DNA from: an uncultured Chroococcidiopsis sp. | GTDB lineage: Bacteria; Cyanobacteriota; Cyanobacteriia; Cyanobacteriales; Chroococcidiopsidaceae | Assembly (NCBI GenBank): GCA_964248365.1 | Contig: CAXTYC010000060.1 | Location: 1-15,342 of the forward strand | Reading direction: 5' to 3' | Length of the DNA stretch: 15,342 nt | Shown here: positions 145 through 14,036 of the stretch, in pieces | How the letters are laid out: every line of letters begins with the position of its first letter | Numbering within the stretch: position 1 is the stretch's first letter | The notes under the pieces: generated by a model | What the model was told of the DNA's origin: nothing | Databases searched by the model: none | Seen by the model: only the letters and a program-made list of their open reading frames with translations | Program-made: the position numbers and the translations under genes

Positions 145-819
145 CTACAATGACTCGTTATCGGGGGATAGAGAGCAGTCAACTTCCTTCTTTTGCGTGT
201 CTAGGTCTGTGTCTATGTCGTGATAAGAGGGTTTCCCGACAGGCGACAGCATCGACAACGCCGCGATCGCTCCCCTGACTTGATCGGGGCGCACCTCTAA
301 ATATTTTTGTAATTCATCCAAGGTGCGGTGTCCTGACACTTCCTGTATGACTCGCAGCGGGATTCCGGTGTCGCTCATCATCGTCAAGGCTGTGCGTCGG
401 AATGAATGGGTACTAGCCCCTTCTATCCCAACACGAGTTGTGGCTTCTCGCAATATTCTAGCTGCTGAATCTGGGTTTATGTGTCCTTTGCCTAGACGAC
501 CTGGAAACAGAAACCATTGATAGGATGGGGGGTTGTAGTCAACCAACAAATTTCTAAGCTCCTCACCCACCCAAATCGTCCTCGTTGCCAGCTTGCCTTT
601 GGTGTTGCCTTTGCGAATGATTAGTTCTTGTCGCACTCGTCTTTTTTCGTCGAAAACATCTTTTCGCCTTAAGGTGCAGGCTTCCATTATCCGGCAAGCG
701 GTGAAAAGGCAGATGCCAAACAAGGCGCGAACTCGACTGTTCTGTAGCCCTTCATTAAATAGCAACTGGATTTCAGCGGAGGTAAGTATTTTTGCTCTGC
801 CGTGCCGATCGATTTTCAT
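145..819 (-). CDS. Tyrosine recombinase (XerC/D-like, compact catalytic-domain type), probable plasmid multimer resolvase, 224 aa
   Basis: Catalytic residues in order: TAC-R-IMEA, T-K-GK, H-SF-R-RT, SG-H-RT, QK-Y-LEV. The ATG at 819 (MKIDRHGRAKIL) is preferred over the ORF-track start at 933, whose extra 38 codons cross the palindromic site region. Confidence 0.93.
   Translation of the reverse strand: MKIDRHGRAKILTSAEIQLLFNEGLQNSRVRALFGICLFTACRIMEACTLRRKDVFDEKRRVRQELIIRKGNTKGKLATRTIWVGEELRNLLVDYNPPSYQWFLFPGRLGKGHINPDSAARILREATTRVGIEGASTHSFRRTALTMMSDTGIPLRVIQEVSGHRTLDELQKYLEVRPDQVRGAIAALSMLSPVGKPSYHDIDTDLDTQKKEVDCSLSPDNESL
263..270. repeat. HIP1 octamer GCGATCGC (further copies at 1429-1436, 5655-5662, 5870-5877)
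   Basis: Four exact copies seen; HIP1 enrichment is a known cyanobacterial signature. Confidence 0.85.
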
Positions 820-830
820 TCCAAGCGCTT

Positions 831-887
831 TAGGTCGGTCTAAGTACAGGCTACACCTAGCTCGGACTATAGTACAGTCTAAGCTAG
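831..887. other. Candidate recombination/binding site of the tyrosine recombinase (two tandem related ~30-bp units)
   Basis: 857-887 reads CTAGCTCGGACT-ATAGTAC-AGTCTAAGCTAG: 12-bp inverted arms (10/12 match) around a 7-bp asymmetric spacer. 831-860 is a degenerate copy. It lies immediately upstream of the recombinase start. Confidence 0.6.
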
Positions 888-899
888 AAAAGTGCGAGC

Positions 900-915
900 G
901 CCGGATTAATCCGGC
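900..915. promoter_or_regulatory. Perfect 16-bp palindrome GCCGGATTAATCCGGC in the divergent promoter region
   Basis: Directly visible; function inferred from position only. Confidence 0.4.
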
Positions 916-973
916 TAATTGGTCTGAAATCACTTGATTTGAGGGCTATAAGCATCGATTAAGAATCCCTATT

Positions 974-1031
974 TGTCAGACAATGCAATACAGTGTAATC
1001 TAGATGGCAAGTGTTAGGCAATGTAAGATAT
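974..1031 (+). repeat. Degenerate 10-bp direct repeats (approx. TGYWAGRCAR), probable operator of the RHH gene
   Basis: TGTCAGACAA 974, TGCAATACAG 984, TGTAATCTAG 994, TGTTAGGCAA 1012, TGTAAGATAT 1022. Confidence 0.5.
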
Positions 1032-1368
1032 GGCGAAAACGAGCAACTCATCAAAGTCTGAATCGGTAACGCTCAGAATCCCCAATGAAATATTCAACTC
1101 AGTTCTGGATTACGCAAAATCAAACACTAAAGGCAACCGCTCCGAAGCGATCGTTGAACTCCTAGAGCTAGGGCTAACCGTCGCCCAGAGTCAGCAATCC
1201 ACAAGGATTGAAGTAACAGTGCAAGACATTGTTAGGCAAAGAGAATTGAGTGAAACTGTCACGGCGCTAGCCGACGAGGTAGAACAGCTAACCCATCTTG
1301 TGCAAGGTACTGTATTGCAGCGGCTAACAGCAATGGAGACTGAACTGTTGGGGGAGTTCAACGCCTGA
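1030..1368 (+). CDS. Ribbon-helix-helix DNA-binding protein with C-terminal coiled coil, 112 aa (short form)
   Basis: N-terminal SVTLRIPNEIFNSVLDYA...NRSEAIVELLELGL fits the RHH pattern. The C-terminal half has a heptad pattern and ends LLGEFNA*. Confidence 0.8.
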   Translation: MAKTSNSSKSESVTLRIPNEIFNSVLDYAKSNTKGNRSEAIVELLELGLTVAQSQQSTRIEVTVQDIVRQRELSETVTALADEVEQLTHLVQGTVLQRLTAMETELLGEFNA

Positions 1369-1532
1369 GAGTGGAAAACGAGACTCTCAGGCAACAGACC
1401 GGGCAGCTGCCAGATCTTGAGGCTATCCGCGATCGCATCCTTTCCAGGCTGAAGGTGGGGAAGCAGTCACCGGAGTACAAGCGTACAAAGGCAGCAATAG
1501 ACCGCTTTATATCTGAAGTGCGCTCAAAGTGA
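1350..1532 (+). CDS. Unannotated -1 frame extension of the RHH gene (or a separate 53-aa ORF from GTG 1371)
   Basis: The frame is open from 1344 to TGA 1530-1532: VQRLRVENETLRQQTGQLPDLEAIRDRILSRLKVGKQSPEYKRTKAAIDRFISEVRSK*. It is amphipathic-helical, contains a HIP1 site, and resembles a small domain I recall from cyanobacterial plasmid proteins. Confidence 0.7.
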   Translation, partial: GGVQRLRVENETLRQQTGQLPDLEAIRDRILSRLKVGKQSPEYKRTKAAIDRFISEVRSK

Positions 1533-2005
1533 AGAGCTGCACTACTAGGTCAATCTGACTCCAAAGACGCTCGCTAGAGTGTCAGAATCAATAGGATTTG
1601 TAACTTGCCTGCTGATTTAGAAGCAGTAGAGCAGTAAAATATCTAAGGTGTATAGTACACCTATACCACAAGAGAGAAAAACCTGAAAATTGCCTAAAGC
1701 ACAGACATCTATGCAAAAATATTCCATCCTGGTAAGCATATCTACAGTGTAATTTTGTCTCTCTTGTAAGCAGTTTAATATTTATAGAGATTCTTCAATG
1801 TTGAGTTTAGCGTATTCTTCTTGACTTGCCCTGGGAGCGACTGATTAGAAAAGGGCAAATTCTAAGAGTTGAAAAAGAGGAGATCTTGGAACAATTCAAA
1901 TTTATTACCAGAATTTTCGGAGGCTCTGCCTAAATTTCACTCAATCCAAGGGATTTTCATAACCTTAACGAGGTTTTGCAACACAACTACCCAAAGTTAA
2001 TACCG

Positions 2006-2572: not shown

Positions 2573-4189
2573 TTACTTTTTAATTTCGATCTTGCCTTTT
2601 AGAGAGCCAGTAACCCGATACCCATTCGAGAGACTAACCGAAACTGTGAGTCCTTTACCCTGTGTGCTGTCAACGGTGGCAATAATTCGGAATGTACCAG
2701 ATCTGCCGTCTTTGGTTTGATAAGTGCCATCCACAACAACTAAATCATCAAGCATCACCGCACGAGTGACTTGGCTGTTTTTAATCTCAAAACCACTGGC
2801 GCAATCTTTCAGGCTGAAACTACCTTCTATGGTAGATGCACTACTGCCCTTCTGTTTTGCCTTTGCTTCAAACTTCACATCTACCTGGCTTCCGTCAGAC
2901 TTAGAGAGCGTGCCCTGACCTTTAACTTCTTGTCCAGGTGATAACGGTACTGCATTATCTAGGGCAAAGTTGAGCAGGGCTTCTGACGCATCAGCAAGAG
3001 CAGCGTCAAGCTCCGCATTCGTGAGGTCTGTCGGGAAAGAGCCTGCGATTTCGTTAAGATCCTGTACATAGGCAAGTTCGCGGATTTGCTCAATTGTGGC
3101 AGCATCAGCACCGAAGTTAGTTAGATTTTGAACAATGGAGGGTGGCAAGCCGTTGTAGAGGACGTTGATCTCAAAGTTGAGTGCATCATTAGGGGAAATG
3201 GTAATTGTTGGAAATCCCGCCGCAAGCAGCGCATTCTTCACATTAGCCCGTAATGCATTTTGAGCGTCTAGTAACTTGTTTAGCTCAAGAGCATACTTGC
3301 TTGCCGCAGCCATCTGCTTGTTCTCCCAAACAGTATTACCAGCCTCGGAAGCACCCTGCGCCCGATTAATAGAAGTGATTATGGCGTTGACTAGACCTAT
3401 AGCCTGTGTCTGATTGGTTAGGAGAGCGTTAAAGCTATCTGCTTCGCCTTGTGTTATGCCTGGTTCAACGACTAAGGGGGTGAATGGAGGGGTGATAGGA
3501 ACAGCGATCTGAGTGAAGTTGGGATCGACTGGATCTAGAGCCAATTCATTGAGCTTAGCGGAGAGAATCCAAGTGCCAACGCTTGTAGCCCCAAACCCAA
3601 AACTACATATTTTGGTGATACTCGGATCGGGGACCAAAAGACACGCGACCGCGATAGCTGAATACACCCCTGCTTGGGTGTTAAGCTTTGCAGATGCGTT
3701 GGCAAATTTATCCTTTTGCTCTTGAGTGAATCGCTTCTTTTGGTTGACATCAACAGTAACGGTAGCAGACTCATCTCCGTCATACCCGTCAATATTGACT
3801 AATAGCGACTCTCCATCTACGGTGGCAGGAAAGCTGAAAGCTCTGGGTTGTGCATATTTGCTGATGGTAGCACTAAAACCACTGCTAGAACTTTTGATGA
3901 TTAGTGGTTCCCCTTCACCGTTTTCGTTAACATCATTTGTACGCAAGGTGGCTTCAATGTTAATCGTATCTCCTTTATGAACTGTCGGAAGGCTGATTGT
4001 ACCTGAGTCGGTAATTGTTGTTGTAACAGGAACCGCCAATACCTGTTTAGAAGAAACTGCCACTATTACTGCGGCAGCTAGCATGGAAGGTAACCCAGGA
4101 TGGAAGCGCTTGATATGACCTTGAGAGTGTTTGTAAAAAAGATGCTGTGCAATCATAATGTTTTTTCTAATTTCTACGACTGATTTCAT
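2573..4189 (-). CDS. Probable secreted multidomain protein of unknown function, up to 538 aa (start could be ATG 4156 or later)
   Basis: Long ORF. Signal-like segment MLAAAVIVAVSSKQVLA|VP, a beta-rich N domain, a hydrophobic hairpin with a Cys pair, an Ala/Asn/Leu-rich helical middle, and a beta-rich C domain ending SNGYRVTGSLKGKIEIKK. Confidence 0.85.
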   Translation of the reverse strand: MKSVVEIRKNIMIAQHLFYKHSQGHIKRFHPGLPSMLAAAVIVAVSSKQVLAVPVTTTITDSGTISLPTVHKGDTINIEATLRTNDVNENGEGEPLIIKSSSSGFSATISKYAQPRAFSFPATVDGESLLVNIDGYDGDESATVTVDVNQKKRFTQEQKDKFANASAKLNTQAGVYSAIAVACLLVPDPSITKICSFGFGATSVGTWILSAKLNELALDPVDPNFTQIAVPITPPFTPLVVEPGITQGEADSFNALLTNQTQAIGLVNAIITSINRAQGASEAGNTVWENKQMAAASKYALELNKLLDAQNALRANVKNALLAAGFPTITISPNDALNFEINVLYNGLPPSIVQNLTNFGADAATIEQIRELAYVQDLNEIAGSFPTDLTNAELDAALADASEALLNFALDNAVPLSPGQEVKGQGTLSKSDGSQVDVKFEAKAKQKGSSASTIEGSFSLKDCASGFEIKNSQVTRAVMLDDLVVVDGTYQTKDGRSGTFRIIATVDSTQGKGLTVSVSLSNGYRVTGSLKGKIEIKK

Positions 4190-9613: not shown

Positions 9614-10171
9614 TCATGCCTGCAATGGCTTGCAATGCGAGGGTGGGAAATATTTCGGGCGCTCTCCTGTCCCTAACTGCCATTGGGTTATCTTAGCTAG
9701 GTATTTTTCTTCTGTCATCCTTTCTGCTTCCGCCTGCCGCTTTAATGCAGTTGGCGATATGTCCAGACGGCGCATGATTTCTGTTTTACTCAACCCCTCA
9801 GAGGCTTCTTTGACTGTGTAGGTGAATTGTCCGCTACTGATGGTGGTATTCTCTGCCAGATGTTCTTCTACACCTGTTGCTAGGCTTCTGGCTCCAGCGG
9901 CGATTAGGGCTTCTCTCACCAGCTGCATCTGCTCTTCTAGCGAGGCTAGCCTGGGTGGTAGGTTGGCGGATTCTAGAGCAGCTACTCTAGGGGCTAGATC
10001 GGTGTCTCCTAGGGGGCGACCGTCTTTTTTGAGGAAGTGTTCTACTATCAGGGATACGGCTTGAGAGACAGATCGCTGGTAGTTGTCATCCATCCATTCC
10101 TTGAGTTGGTCTAGTACTTCCTTGGGTAAATAGGTGGTAACTTGTACGCTCTTTTTATCGCTTGACTCCAT
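9614..10171 (-). CDS. Putative DNA-binding protein: N-terminal RHH, coiled coil, C-terminal HTH-like domain, 185 aa
   Basis: SVQVTTYLPKEVLDQLKEW...SVSQAVSLIVEHFL (RHH); duplicated LAPRVAALE / LPPRLASLE; GLSKTEIMRRLDISPTALKR (HTH-like). SD AGGAG upstream. Confidence 0.75.
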   Translation of the reverse strand: MESSDKKSVQVTTYLPKEVLDQLKEWMDDNYQRSVSQAVSLIVEHFLKKDGRPLGDTDLAPRVAALESANLPPRLASLEEQMQLVREALIAAGARSLATGVEEHLAENTTISSGQFTYTVKEASEGLSKTEIMRRLDISPTALKRQAEAERMTEEKYLAKITQWQLGTGERPKYFPPSHCKPLQA

Positions 10172-11036: not shown

Positions 11037-13115
11037 TTATGGGCTTTCTGACTGGATGAAAGCAATAACTATTTCTCCAATGTCTGGATTAGCTCTAGCC
11101 CAAGCTAGTACCTCATCCATCAGCATTGGTTCGCCCGACGACCAAAGATACCGCATTTTGGCAATGGTTTCCCGTTGCTCTCGCGTGGGGGGGCTGAATA
11201 TTCTTCCCTCAATCTGGGACTGCACATCTACTGCTTTTTTGGCGATGCTAATTGCAGCAAGCCAAATTCGGGTATGGCGGCGAGTGACAAGAGGGTCGGC
11301 TGCTATTGGGATTTTTGGGGCAGTTGGAGCAACTGGGGGACTCTTACTCTTGTTGGACACAGGCACAGCTGGCGGCACATCTCCCCTGGAATATTGCCTT
11401 GAGGTAGATTGCCCAAGCAGTTGCTCTGATGCAATAATGTGGGTAGCATCCACGATGCTAGCATCGTCGATTGATAAGTCTGGTTTATGTAATTTTTCCG
11501 CCGCGCTGCCGGAAGTAGGGGATTTGTAATTCTTATCAGAGCTGCTATTCGATTCTGTTGGTAAAGAGTTTGAAGAATTTAAAGAATTTTTAGAGTTAGC
11601 TTCTGACTCAGGGGAATGGGGTTGGAGATCTTCTTTTGCCTGCGGCAAGCACAAGACCTTCATTATAGGGAAAGGTGTGTACAGATTGCTCTGTCCTTGA
11701 CTGGGCGCGGGTTGTGGCGTTTCTGGTTCGAGCCAGGGATCGGGTATTTGGGCGAATTTTGGGCTAGTAAAATCGGCTGTAACTGGCTCACAGTGCGGTT
11801 GTACACACCTTTGTTCATCACTTGGGTAATTTCGGGGATGCCACAGGGCTAAGTACTCTGGCTTGTGTAGGGTTGTTTTGGATACACCTACATGGTATAG
11901 CTGTTTGGATGTGGCGATGATGGCTGTTGCTCGCAATGCTGGAGTTAGTGGTAATTCTCCTGCAAGCTCTAGGTGGGCGACGATATTACGGATTCTCTCC
12001 TGGGTATTAAGCTGCAATTCATTGTTGAGATTGGGGCGGGGAAAGTCTACTACGTTGTTGGCTGCGCCAAAGTGTGAGCGGTAGTTGCGCTTGCGATTGG
12101 GGATTGACGGATAGGGGGTGTAGAATCCCATGCAGCAATATGCCCATTCTCTTGCTCGCTGCTCTATATTGTGTTGGTGACGGCAAAATTCGTGGTAGCC
12201 TGGGGAGGAGGTAGCTGTTTCTACAATGTATTCCACTAGGGCTTCGTCTGCTAGCGCTTTGAAGACTATGCCGTAACAAGCGATGTCTTTGAGCAGTGAG
12301 TTTGTCTGTCCGTAGTCAGTCCAGCCTTCTGAAATTCTTTGTTTTAGGTCTATTCGCCAAAGTTCGGCTTTAATTGAGTTAGCTGGCTTGTAGAGTTTTT
12401 GCTGGCGAAGTGACGCGGCTTTGAGGGCAAGTTTTAGGGTTAAATAGTCTTGACCTGCTGCTGACCAATCGGCGGCATCTAAAAACGAATGTAGGTCGTT
12501 GGTATACGGTTCATCGCTGGAATCCAGCAGGAACGAACCTGCTTGCAAGGGTAGCCGCAGGGCGTTGTAGTTACTGGGTAGGGCTGTCCAAGCTTTGAGG
12601 TTGGGGAAGATTTCTAGCCAGCCCTGCTTAATTTCAAATCCGGCATCCGTAAGTGCGTCAAAGCAGGCGCAGGCTAGGGGGAAGGTAGGGAGTTCTTCTG
12701 AAAAGAAGTAGTAAACGTGAATTCCACCGCTATCGCTGGATATGATTGCTACGGGTTTGCACAGCCCGATTTCTTCTAGTGCGGCTAACACCGATTTATA
12801 TGCTGTTGGGTTGAGTGCAGGATGGTAAGGGCTGTTAATATCCAGATCGATGGCGAAGTAACGGGTGTTTTTGCCGAATCGCAGTCCCAAGAATGTTTTG
12901 GGGTTTTGGTACTGCTGCCACAGGTTACGCGGTTGAAGTGGATAGCGGGTTTCTGTCTGCCAGTGCGGTTTTTCAAAGCGTATTGCTGGGGCGTAGATGA
13001 AGCCCCAAGGATGGTTGAAATACTGGCAGAATCTGACTCCTAGCGGGTCGGCGGGGGCGATTGGCTTCTCTGCGCCCTTTGGGGCAAATGATTTTTCTTT
13101 TGTAGTGGTAAGCAT
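11037..13115 (-). CDS. Probable plasmid replication initiator with an archaeo-eukaryotic primase (AEP)/prim-pol-like N-terminal domain, 692 aa
   Basis: Motif I YFAI-D-L-D-INSPYHP, motif II SSDSGGI-H-VY, later LEIFPN and LRLPLQ. A helical primase-C-like region is followed by a P/S-rich linker. SD GGAG upstream of the ATG. Confidence 0.75.
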   Translation of the reverse strand: MLTTTKEKSFAPKGAEKPIAPADPLGVRFCQYFNHPWGFIYAPAIRFEKPHWQTETRYPLQPRNLWQQYQNPKTFLGLRFGKNTRYFAIDLDINSPYHPALNPTAYKSVLAALEEIGLCKPVAIISSDSGGIHVYYFFSEELPTFPLACACFDALTDAGFEIKQGWLEIFPNLKAWTALPSNYNALRLPLQAGSFLLDSSDEPYTNDLHSFLDAADWSAAGQDYLTLKLALKAASLRQQKLYKPANSIKAELWRIDLKQRISEGWTDYGQTNSLLKDIACYGIVFKALADEALVEYIVETATSSPGYHEFCRHQHNIEQRAREWAYCCMGFYTPYPSIPNRKRNYRSHFGAANNVVDFPRPNLNNELQLNTQERIRNIVAHLELAGELPLTPALRATAIIATSKQLYHVGVSKTTLHKPEYLALWHPRNYPSDEQRCVQPHCEPVTADFTSPKFAQIPDPWLEPETPQPAPSQGQSNLYTPFPIMKVLCLPQAKEDLQPHSPESEANSKNSLNSSNSLPTESNSSSDKNYKSPTSGSAAEKLHKPDLSIDDASIVDATHIIASEQLLGQSTSRQYSRGDVPPAVPVSNKSKSPPVAPTAPKIPIAADPLVTRRHTRIWLAAISIAKKAVDVQSQIEGRIFSPPTREQRETIAKMRYLWSSGEPMLMDEVLAWARANPDIGEIVIAFIQSESP

Positions 13116-13657: not shown

Positions 13658-13816
13658 TTAGCGAGGCTCCTCAAGTTTCTTTAACGCCTCATCCAAAATC
13701 CGATCTGCCAACTCTCCCATCGTTACCCCCATTTTGACGGCTTGAATTCTCAACCGTGTCCTAGTGGATTCCCGAACATCTACCTGTAGGACTACTATCT
13801 TCTCATTTTCTGTCAT
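13658..13816 (-). CDS. Small CopG/ParG-like ribbon-helix-helix protein, 52 aa (not in the ORF track; alternative ATG 13825)
   Basis: Manual translation MTENEKIVVLQVDVRESTRTRLRIQAVKMGVTMGELADRILDEALKKLEEPR* is a typical RHH; co-oriented upstream of rep. Confidence 0.85.
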   Translation of the reverse strand: MTENEKIVVLQVDVRESTRTRLRIQAVKMGVTMGELADRILDEALKKLEEPR

Positions 13817-14036
13817 TGCTAGCATTGCCAACCTTCTAAGTCATTATTAAATATTGTGATGTTGACTTGGTATCATGCCTGCATTGTCAACAATACTAAT
13901 CAGTATAGCATTATCGGATTAACGTCAGAAGCCAATGTTTCCCAACGTGGGAGAGCAGAGAAAGGGCTGCGAGGGATAAGGATAGCCTAAAAGGGTTGTA
14001 TTGCAAAAACTTTATTAGTTTCAGAATTAGCTCTCC

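Follow-up and report, generated by a model that had tools for sequence, protein, structure and literature searches.

Locus and gene content

The window analysed here is an entire contig of 15,342 nt (contig C60 of the source genome, G000). A domain scan identified genes for a relaxase (PF03432), a NikA/MobC-like protein and a tyrosine recombinase, and because of these three genes the contig was called plasmid-like. The features at the locus of interest were as follows.

145-933 (-): divergent tyrosine recombinase gene (PF00589, E 3.8e-19), a possible target of the regulator
1030-1368 (+): 0-frame ORF encoding the short product of 112 aa, with an RHH/CopG-like N-terminus and then a helical stretch (coiled coil)
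1324-1409 (+): leucine heptad repeat across the junction; predicted leucine zipper
1334-1338 (+): TGGAG, internal SD-like; its GGAG (1335-1338) lies 11 nt 5' of the G5 run; possible 5' stimulator
1341-1343 (+): TGA closing the -1 frame on its upstream side
1350-1356 (+): shift-prone heptamer G_GGG_GAG, G5 run at 1350-1354, Gly108-Glu109 in the 0 frame
1350-1532 (+): -1 frame extension of 60 codons and stop (frame open 1344-1529, stop 1530-1532)
1357-1362 (+): 6-nt spacer
1363-1392 (+): 30-nt hairpin, 10-bp stem (1363-1372 / 1383-1392) and 10-nt loop; predicted 3' stimulator
1366-1368 (+): 0-frame stop TGA, within the 5' arm and three codons past the heptamer
1413-1529 (+): tail domain with two helices, without a named family, represented by 490 clusters at 50% identity

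A preliminary description of this DNA had placed the GGAG, the G5 run, the heptamer, the spacer, the stem and a GTG at 1371, and all of these coordinates were found to be correct. Its statement that the -1 frame opens only at 1344 and encodes about 60 residues was confirmed. The two isoforms proposed there, of 112 aa and about 167 aa, follow from the frames: 108 codons to 1353 and 59 codons from 1353 to 1529 give, by arithmetic, a trans-frame product of 167 aa. Both products are predicted from the sequence.

A promoter scan at the locus found none, no clear operator repeat was found upstream of the 0-frame ORF, and an Rfam search of 900-1700 gave nothing near the gathering score. The tyrosine recombinase gene was near only 4 of 89 cassette elements in relatives, so its linkage to the regulator is without conservation. 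A terminator-like hairpin, scored on the minus strand, was observed at 1646-1662 (-), 114 nt beyond the tail stop. Two further RHH-like genes are present in the window, at 9614-10171 (-) (RHH_5, E 0.0034; 185 aa, one continuous frame that includes a coil and an additional C-terminal region) and at 13658-13831 (-) (RHH_10, E 0.00013). Two long ORFs, 2573-4189 (-) of 538 aa and 11037-13115 (-) of 692 aa, were without a Pfam match at E 0.1; the latter may, as a guess, encode a replication protein.

Slip site and hairpin in the window

The TGA at 1341-1343 is in the -1 frame, and the tail frame can therefore be entered only at or after 1344. The internal SD had a strong duplex energy of -6.4 kcal/mol with the anti-SD sequence. 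The two stem arms (1363-1372 and 1383-1392) were 100% complementary, and GTG 1371 is located at the top of the 5' arm. Folding gave this hairpin as both the MFE and the centroid structure, at -24.1 kcal/mol for 1357-1420 with a z of -2.96, and 0 of 200 shuffles were as good.

The arrangement of slip site and hairpin at 1350-1392 exceeds chance. Four slip-type heptamer patterns occur 12,417 times in the source genome, and 20 of these occurrences have a stem of at least 7 bp at the exact geometry. Among those 20, a long 0-frame ORF ending in the stem was found only in the window and in a paralogue on contig C7. A candidate on contig C43 was rejected, as it lies inside a gene that just continues in the -1 frame.

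The heptamer had been described as non-canonical. G_GGG_GAG does fail the canonical X_XXY_YYZ in the 0-frame register, but it is not unprecedented: GGGGGAA is the common slip site of actinophage tail-assembly-chaperone genes (PMC10885494), and the family of the window gene swaps in canonical heptamers.

Conservation of the frame break and the cassette

Homologues of the 0-frame protein with lengths of 61-196 aa were searched, and the best-scoring 120 of the 163 found were taken as the orthologue set. The length was 112 aa in 97 of the 120 orthologues examined. A Gly five residues from the end was present in 114 of 120 and a Glu four from the end in 113, in line with the expectation that homologues would keep the frame break. 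In-frame fusion through a run of six Gs had been named as the observation that would speak for a sequencing error or recent indel; no six-G homologue was found, and the single in-frame fusion with the tail among the 120, P0036 (172 aa, from one contig), is due to another change. The 0-frame stop was lost in 2 of 120 orthologues, in which the tail was not reached. The source genome itself holds two further split copies with other N-termini and the break at the same place.

A second set was selected by the tail alone. In this set 121 loci were read, including 41 fetched loci and two plasmid regions, the weakest matches of the profile search being left out, and 91 unique domain hits were obtained. 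Thirty-three of these were split in the -1 geometry (31 with a slip heptamer) and one in the +1 geometry, while 26 were single in-frame ORFs of at least 100 aa, many with an RHH-like head by eye, and 31 were fragments.

A third set was selected by the cassette itself, using a pattern of heptamer and stem arms that matched at least 119 stretches in the genome collection. Among the 80 matches listed, 73 had cyanobacterial titles and 75 spanned exactly 43 nt, although 35-51 nt was allowed. The stop position was shared by 100 of the 103 unique 43-nt elements. The -1 frame of these elements ran for at least 25 codons (median 35), compared with a median of 9 for the +1 frame. Three pattern matches, two of them of the 43-nt type, were observed in viral contigs. 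A pattern of the loop and 3' arm was present in 76 of the 301 genomes of family f5, and the reversed control of this pattern gave none among the matches listed for the same 301 genomes.

A search with the hairpin pattern returned 274 rows on both strands. After 138 rows without any of five slip heptamers and 4 with a short 0 frame had been dropped, 132 elements in 66 clusters remained. Nearly all of the dropped rows listed were the reverse-strand image of the same hairpin, and one, L081, was a decayed copy.

Genes neighbouring the cassette include DUF3854, Bro-N and Rha genes. Together with an unnamed divergent gene family, they suggest that the cassette sits in mobile elements. The divergent family (300-385 aa or more) lies upstream of and adjoins 41 of 89 elements, e.g. 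L158, L186, L194 and L271, and another gene family is found downstream of 16 of 89. A Pfam scan of three members of the divergent upstream family and two of the downstream family gave no match. One family member, NPUN_RS35390, was found in Nostoc punctiforme PCC 73102, a cultured strain, on its plasmid pNPUN02. In RefSeq only the short CDS was annotated for the two plasmid members checked. By these comparisons, heptamer, spacer, hairpin and stop are a conserved cassette in genes of cyanobacterial mobile elements.

Heptamer exchange and stem covariation

Two sets were blind to the slip site: 13 metagenome loci, some of them near-duplicates, and 30 loci from family f5 (one place each, from 30 of the 76 genomes). 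A shift-prone heptamer was observed at the same position in all 43 (13/13 metagenome and 30/30 f5), as G_GGG_GAA in 27, G_GGG_GAG in 7, G_GGA_AAA in 6, A_AAA_AAA in 2 and G_GGG_AAG in 1. The exchange is among shift-prone heptamers, some of them not SD-like and encoding other amino acids, and therefore fits a frameshift and not a model of SD plus start codon. The slip Gly codon was GGG in 60 of the 66 clusters, which are partly pattern-selected, compared with 23 of 109 upstream Gly codons. Four tail-selected loci (L010, L021, L022 and L056) had the canonical G_GGA_AAA/G, followed 6 nt downstream by a hairpin of unrelated sequence. MFE folding of 31 pattern-free loci gave a 6-nt spacer in 22, a stem reaching into the spacer in 8 and a 10-nt spacer in 1.

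An alignment of 38 elements, of which 27 were tail-selected, had 92% of its stem cells paired. Seven of the ten stem pairs had changes on both sides, which are the compensatory changes predicted in the preliminary description, and a change of the stop from TGA to TAA was accompanied by a compensatory change in the 3' arm. The paired share was reached by 0 of 500 shuffles and slid controls gave 25-44%; these tests, like the counts above, overstate independence because the loci are kin.

The internal SD was less constant. An SD tetramer was present in 26 of 66 clusters, and a strong SD in 29 of 66 against 25.8 expected (p 0.21). The mean SD energy across clusters was modestly better than in codon-shuffled controls (p 0.004). 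The internal SD described earlier therefore stands as far as the window is concerned, but it seems to be optional in the family.

The -1 frame as coding sequence

Tail matches were found in 23 of 401 genomes of the phylum and, by profile search, in 68 of 401 genomes of the order. Matches were also found in 25 plasmid records, all cyanobacterial. For 42 disjoint pairs, pooled and aligned under guidance of the -1 protein, the dN/dS of the tail was 0.27 for the -1 frame, compared with 0.80 and 1.92 for the others. Five ungapped close relatives of the window gave 0.23 in the -1 frame and 1.41 and 2.51 in the others. The purifying selection anticipated for the -1 frame was thus observed (0.23-0.27 versus 0.8-2.5 in the other frames). 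The three loop codons had dN/dS values of 0.06 for the -1 frame and 1.30 for the 0 frame. Upstream of the break the close-relative set gave 0.73, an unreliable value as the ungapped alignment takes in the diverged head.

The -1 frame was open for at least 23 codons in all 66 clusters and the +1 frame in 10 of 66. No ATG, GTG or TTG was present in the first 15 codons of the -1 frame in 89 of 103 elements. Initiation at GTG 1371, raised earlier as the competing explanation of the tail, finds little backing, since this codon was kept in just 6 of 103. By its sequence evolution, the -1 frame is protein-coding, under purifying selection and without a conserved start of its own. A terminator-like hairpin was found at or in the end of short tails in 20 of 49 short-tail clusters (e.g. 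L300:1275-1320), and it may explain part of the short-tail conservation and the shared last residues.

Predicted proteins

The window protein alone gave only below-cut-off matches to RHH families, and NikR was matched at E 0.043. Among family members (n=58), matches at E 0.01 or lower were obtained to RHH_1 (10), NikA-like (9), ParG (8) and Arc (2), and JGI names five orthologues as CopG/Arc/MetJ family. The RHH identity given in the preliminary description is therefore weakly supported for the window protein itself, which stays below the cut-off, and better for the family, whose members match RHH-clan families. AF2 of the natural fusion P0036 was of low confidence (pLDDT 50) and contained no strand.

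In the 0 frame of the window the heptad positions are Leu 1324 and Leu 1345; in the -1 frame they are Val 1356, Leu 1365, Asn 1377, Leu 1386 and Leu 1407. Across the 66 clusters, hydrophobic residues were found at -16, -9, -2, +5, +12 and +19 relative to the slip Gly; position +2 was Ile or Val, and position +9 was Asn (54 of 66). Positions +5 and +12 were set by the search pattern; the upstream phase and +19 were not. The upstream heptad phase had a hydrophobic share of 0.55, compared with 0.15-0.38 in the other phases, and +19 had 0.79. Heptad hydrophobics with such Ile/Val and Asn residues are the pattern of a dimeric leucine zipper. A leucine zipper completed only through the shift is thus predicted. 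In loci with a canonical heptamer, L010 and L021 among them, the zipper pattern fails to follow the junction.

Other RHH-like proteins also carry the tail domain, as an in-frame C-terminal part. AF2 of the window tail gave helices at residues 21-31 and 39-57 with a mean pLDDT of 79. Tails of 40 codons or fewer were found in 49 of 66 clusters. Searches of the tail against Pfam, NCBIfam, PDB sequences and the ESM Atlas returned no named family. Fold searches returned generic helical hairpins (best Foldseek E 2.5; best Z 6.0 with an rmsd of 2.8 over 57 aligned residues) and therefore say nothing on tail function. A complex prediction with two copies of the tail scored 0.34 against a mark of 0.42 and was counted neither way.

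Alternative explanations

Translational coupling would make GGGGGAG the SD of a separate small gene, starting at CTG 1365 over the TGA or at GTG 1371. The GGAG at 1353-1356 is well spaced to act as an SD for CTG 1365, 8 nt further on, and overlaps of a start with a stop codon, as in CTG/TGA, are common. The codon overlapping the stop was CTG in 91 and TTG in 3 of the 103 elements, for which the search pattern could not return ATG. However, it was CTA in the other 9, and the 31 pattern-free loci had CTG in 23, GTA in 4, TTG in 3 and CTA in 1 but never ATG. Together with the 89 elements lacking a start in the first 15 codons, no conserved start codon with an SD for a second gene was found. Furthermore, 5 of the 30 slip-blind f5 loci have A_AAA_AAA or G_GGA_AAA, neither of them SD-like, at the same place, the proposed start is buried in the stem, and the heptad register runs on from the upstream protein. 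Coupling was considered very unlikely.

Equally improbable is that the hairpin serves otherwise, in mRNA stability or as a palindromic DNA site for the RHH protein, with frameshifting a rare event without function. RHH proteins bind inverted repeats, and the two arms, whose sequence is strongly conserved, make up such a repeat around a 16-nt spacer. One-sided changes of the G-U type are nevertheless tolerated (17 cells), as suits an RNA structure rather than a DNA site. It would also be left unexplained why the heptamer is fixed 6 nt upstream and why the -1 frame is under selection past the hairpin.

Slightly less probable again is transcriptional slippage, by which the polymerase would add a G in the G5 run and the resulting mRNA would join both frames. 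It would yield the same fused product and is known for the plasmid regulator mxiE (PMC5009743). By reasoning, however, the hairpin 6 nt downstream is still untranscribed when the polymerase is on the run, and elsewhere the run is replaced by G_GGA_AAA/G with the spacer kept. No insertion at 1350-1354 was seen in relatives' contigs from three sequencing runs, one a metatranscriptome; this is weak evidence, as contigs drop rare variants and the runs matched relatives only, as contigs with shares below 0.2.

That a sequencing error or recent pseudogene formation removed one base from a 167-aa gene can practically be dismissed: P0036 is fused in frame and 26 of the 91 tail-domain loci are single ORFs, but the break lies at the same place in 114 of 120 orthologues and in the two source-genome paralogues with other N-termini, and its conservation refutes the sequencing-error reading.

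Proposed mechanism

The gene very probably carries a programmed -1 ribosomal frameshift, with predicted products of 112 aa and 167 aa, the longer form having an extended zipper and the two-helix tail. In the paused ribosome the P site would contain GGG (1351-1353) and the A site GAG (1354-1356), with the mRNA entrance obstructed by the hairpin. The tRNA-Gly would re-pair perfectly on GGG one base back, and the tRNA-Glu would re-pair on GGA, third-position wobble being traded for a second-position G-U. Alternatively, the tRNA-Glu would leave and Gly would be inserted. At the window locus the SD 11 nt upstream may assist the slip. Ribosomes that do not slip would terminate three codons later, within the stem.

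The source genome has a single tRNA-Glu, UUC. Slip efficiency may be low, because G_GGG_GAG needs the second-position G-U. A G to A change at the wobble position is favourable according to a thermodynamic study whose scope does not extend to second-position changes (PMC6787027). A re-pairing like this tRNA-Gly/tRNA-Glu scheme has been proposed for GGGGGAA at about a thousand actinophage sites (PMC10885494). As its likeliest purpose, at roughly even chances, the shift would fix the ratio of zipper-short to zipper-long forms on one DNA-binding head and would thereby tune oligomer state and repression strength.

Comparison with known systems

The window shares its layout with dnaX and the IS3 family (IS911), namely a heptamer, a 3' stem-loop at the known distance of 5-9 nt and an SD 9-14 nt upstream (PMC5009743). 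As in those systems, the heptamer is conserved independently of the amino acids, a 3' structure follows, and the -1 frame is coding and without a start of its own. The shift in IS3 elements lengthens a short DNA-binding protein, as is predicted for the window. In contrast to dnaX and IS3, the heptamer of the window is not X_XXY_YYZ and the SD is optional in its family. The shift in Escherichia coli dnaX truncates the product, whereas the shift in the window would extend it. The -1 frame encodes no DDE transposase of the IS3 orfAB kind but a 60-codon helical tail without a Pfam or NCBIfam match.

The heptamer type is shared with the -1 frameshift of actinophage chaperone genes (GGGGGAA, the PRFect 'fivetwo' motif; lambda gpG/gpGT type). 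The window gene is, by contrast, an RHH-like regulator of cyanobacterial mobile elements, and its neighbours are relaxase, mobilisation and recombinase genes instead of major tail and tape-measure genes. The GAG variant of the window does not occur in the main text of PMC10885494. By analogy, the window site would work like dnaX/IS3-type -1 frameshifting; the gene itself is neither an IS nor a phage gene.

The preliminary description took the site as recoding in a plasmid regulator and not in a transposase. No transposase domain was found. Recoding of a mobile-element regulator is already known from FseA (msi172-msi171 of ICEMlSymR7A), a transcription regulator made by programmed frameshifting (PMC4755241). 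FseA is the nearest precedent. Its homologues occur as single and split ORFs, like the tail domain of the window, and a +1 shift at UUUC with 4-13% efficiency joins its activator halves (PMC4755241). The window differs from FseA in that its shift would be -1 and would involve a 3' hairpin, and in that the predicted DNA-binding domain is already part of the short product. Relative to the RHH/CopG plasmid regulators CopG, ParG, NikA and Arc, the family adds a C-terminal coiled coil and the recoded extension.

Literature searches found no published recoded RHH gene. A full-text search, with subscription journals and one GeneTack and bioRxiv supplements outside its scope, found no published description of this frameshift family. 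The family was also absent on word look-up in the available text of PMC12873609, PMC5009743, PMC3711429 and bioRxiv 10.64898/2025.12.20.695498. Outside insertion sequences and phage tail genes, the review literature consulted names few bacterial genes with -1 frameshifts (dnaX, copA and cso2). If true, the present finding would add a large recoded family from cyanobacteria, the long products of which are missing from annotation. Four heptamer types before one hairpin would form a natural series for second-position G-U re-pairing, and the member on the plasmid of cultured N. punctiforme PCC 73102 makes a direct test possible.

Variation among mobile elements

A wider reading, held tentatively and with somewhat more doubt than confidence, is that the 43-nt unit acts as a recoding cassette that can be carried from gene to gene and also encodes half a leucine zipper. 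Cyanobacterial mobile elements would have attached it to unrelated heads and different tails in hundreds of genes, dialling the ratio of short to long forms in mixed oligomers. The heads would be several RHH lineages, a domain of the L010/L024 type and a longer fusion in L019/L021. The tails would be a short zipper, a zipper with the two-helix domain, and long coils.

Several loci with unusual arrangements were observed. In L010 and at G000:C7:35,384 (L024) the cassette follows a different N-terminal domain, belonging to no tested family, and in L015 a similar-looking N-terminal domain is joined in frame to the same tail. L077 is an in-frame gene with the tail in which a trace of the 3' stem arm is present and the heptamer is absent. 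L093 is also an in-frame gene with the tail, and its head is the same as that of the split gene in L016. L077 and L093 may be fused descendants. In the paralogue L031 (G000:C20, about 69,750-70,140) the cassette is intact, but the frame of the RHH-like head is broken at an A8 run; the homologue in L175 is in frame at that position. The frame break in L031 may represent a broken copy, an assembly error or a second slippage site.

Two cassette-like matches 430-650 nt apart were found in L193 and on G840:C1, G896:C95, G909:C331, G857:C348, G919:C533 and G925:C1, which suggests tandem regulator genes. In L193, the only pair read, the two copies differ in heptamer. Finally, the class of in-frame RHH-plus-tail genes is multicopy and, by eye, lies beside a transposase-like end (G242, with six identical copies, L008, L020, L025 and L027); it may be carried as a passenger by an insertion sequence.
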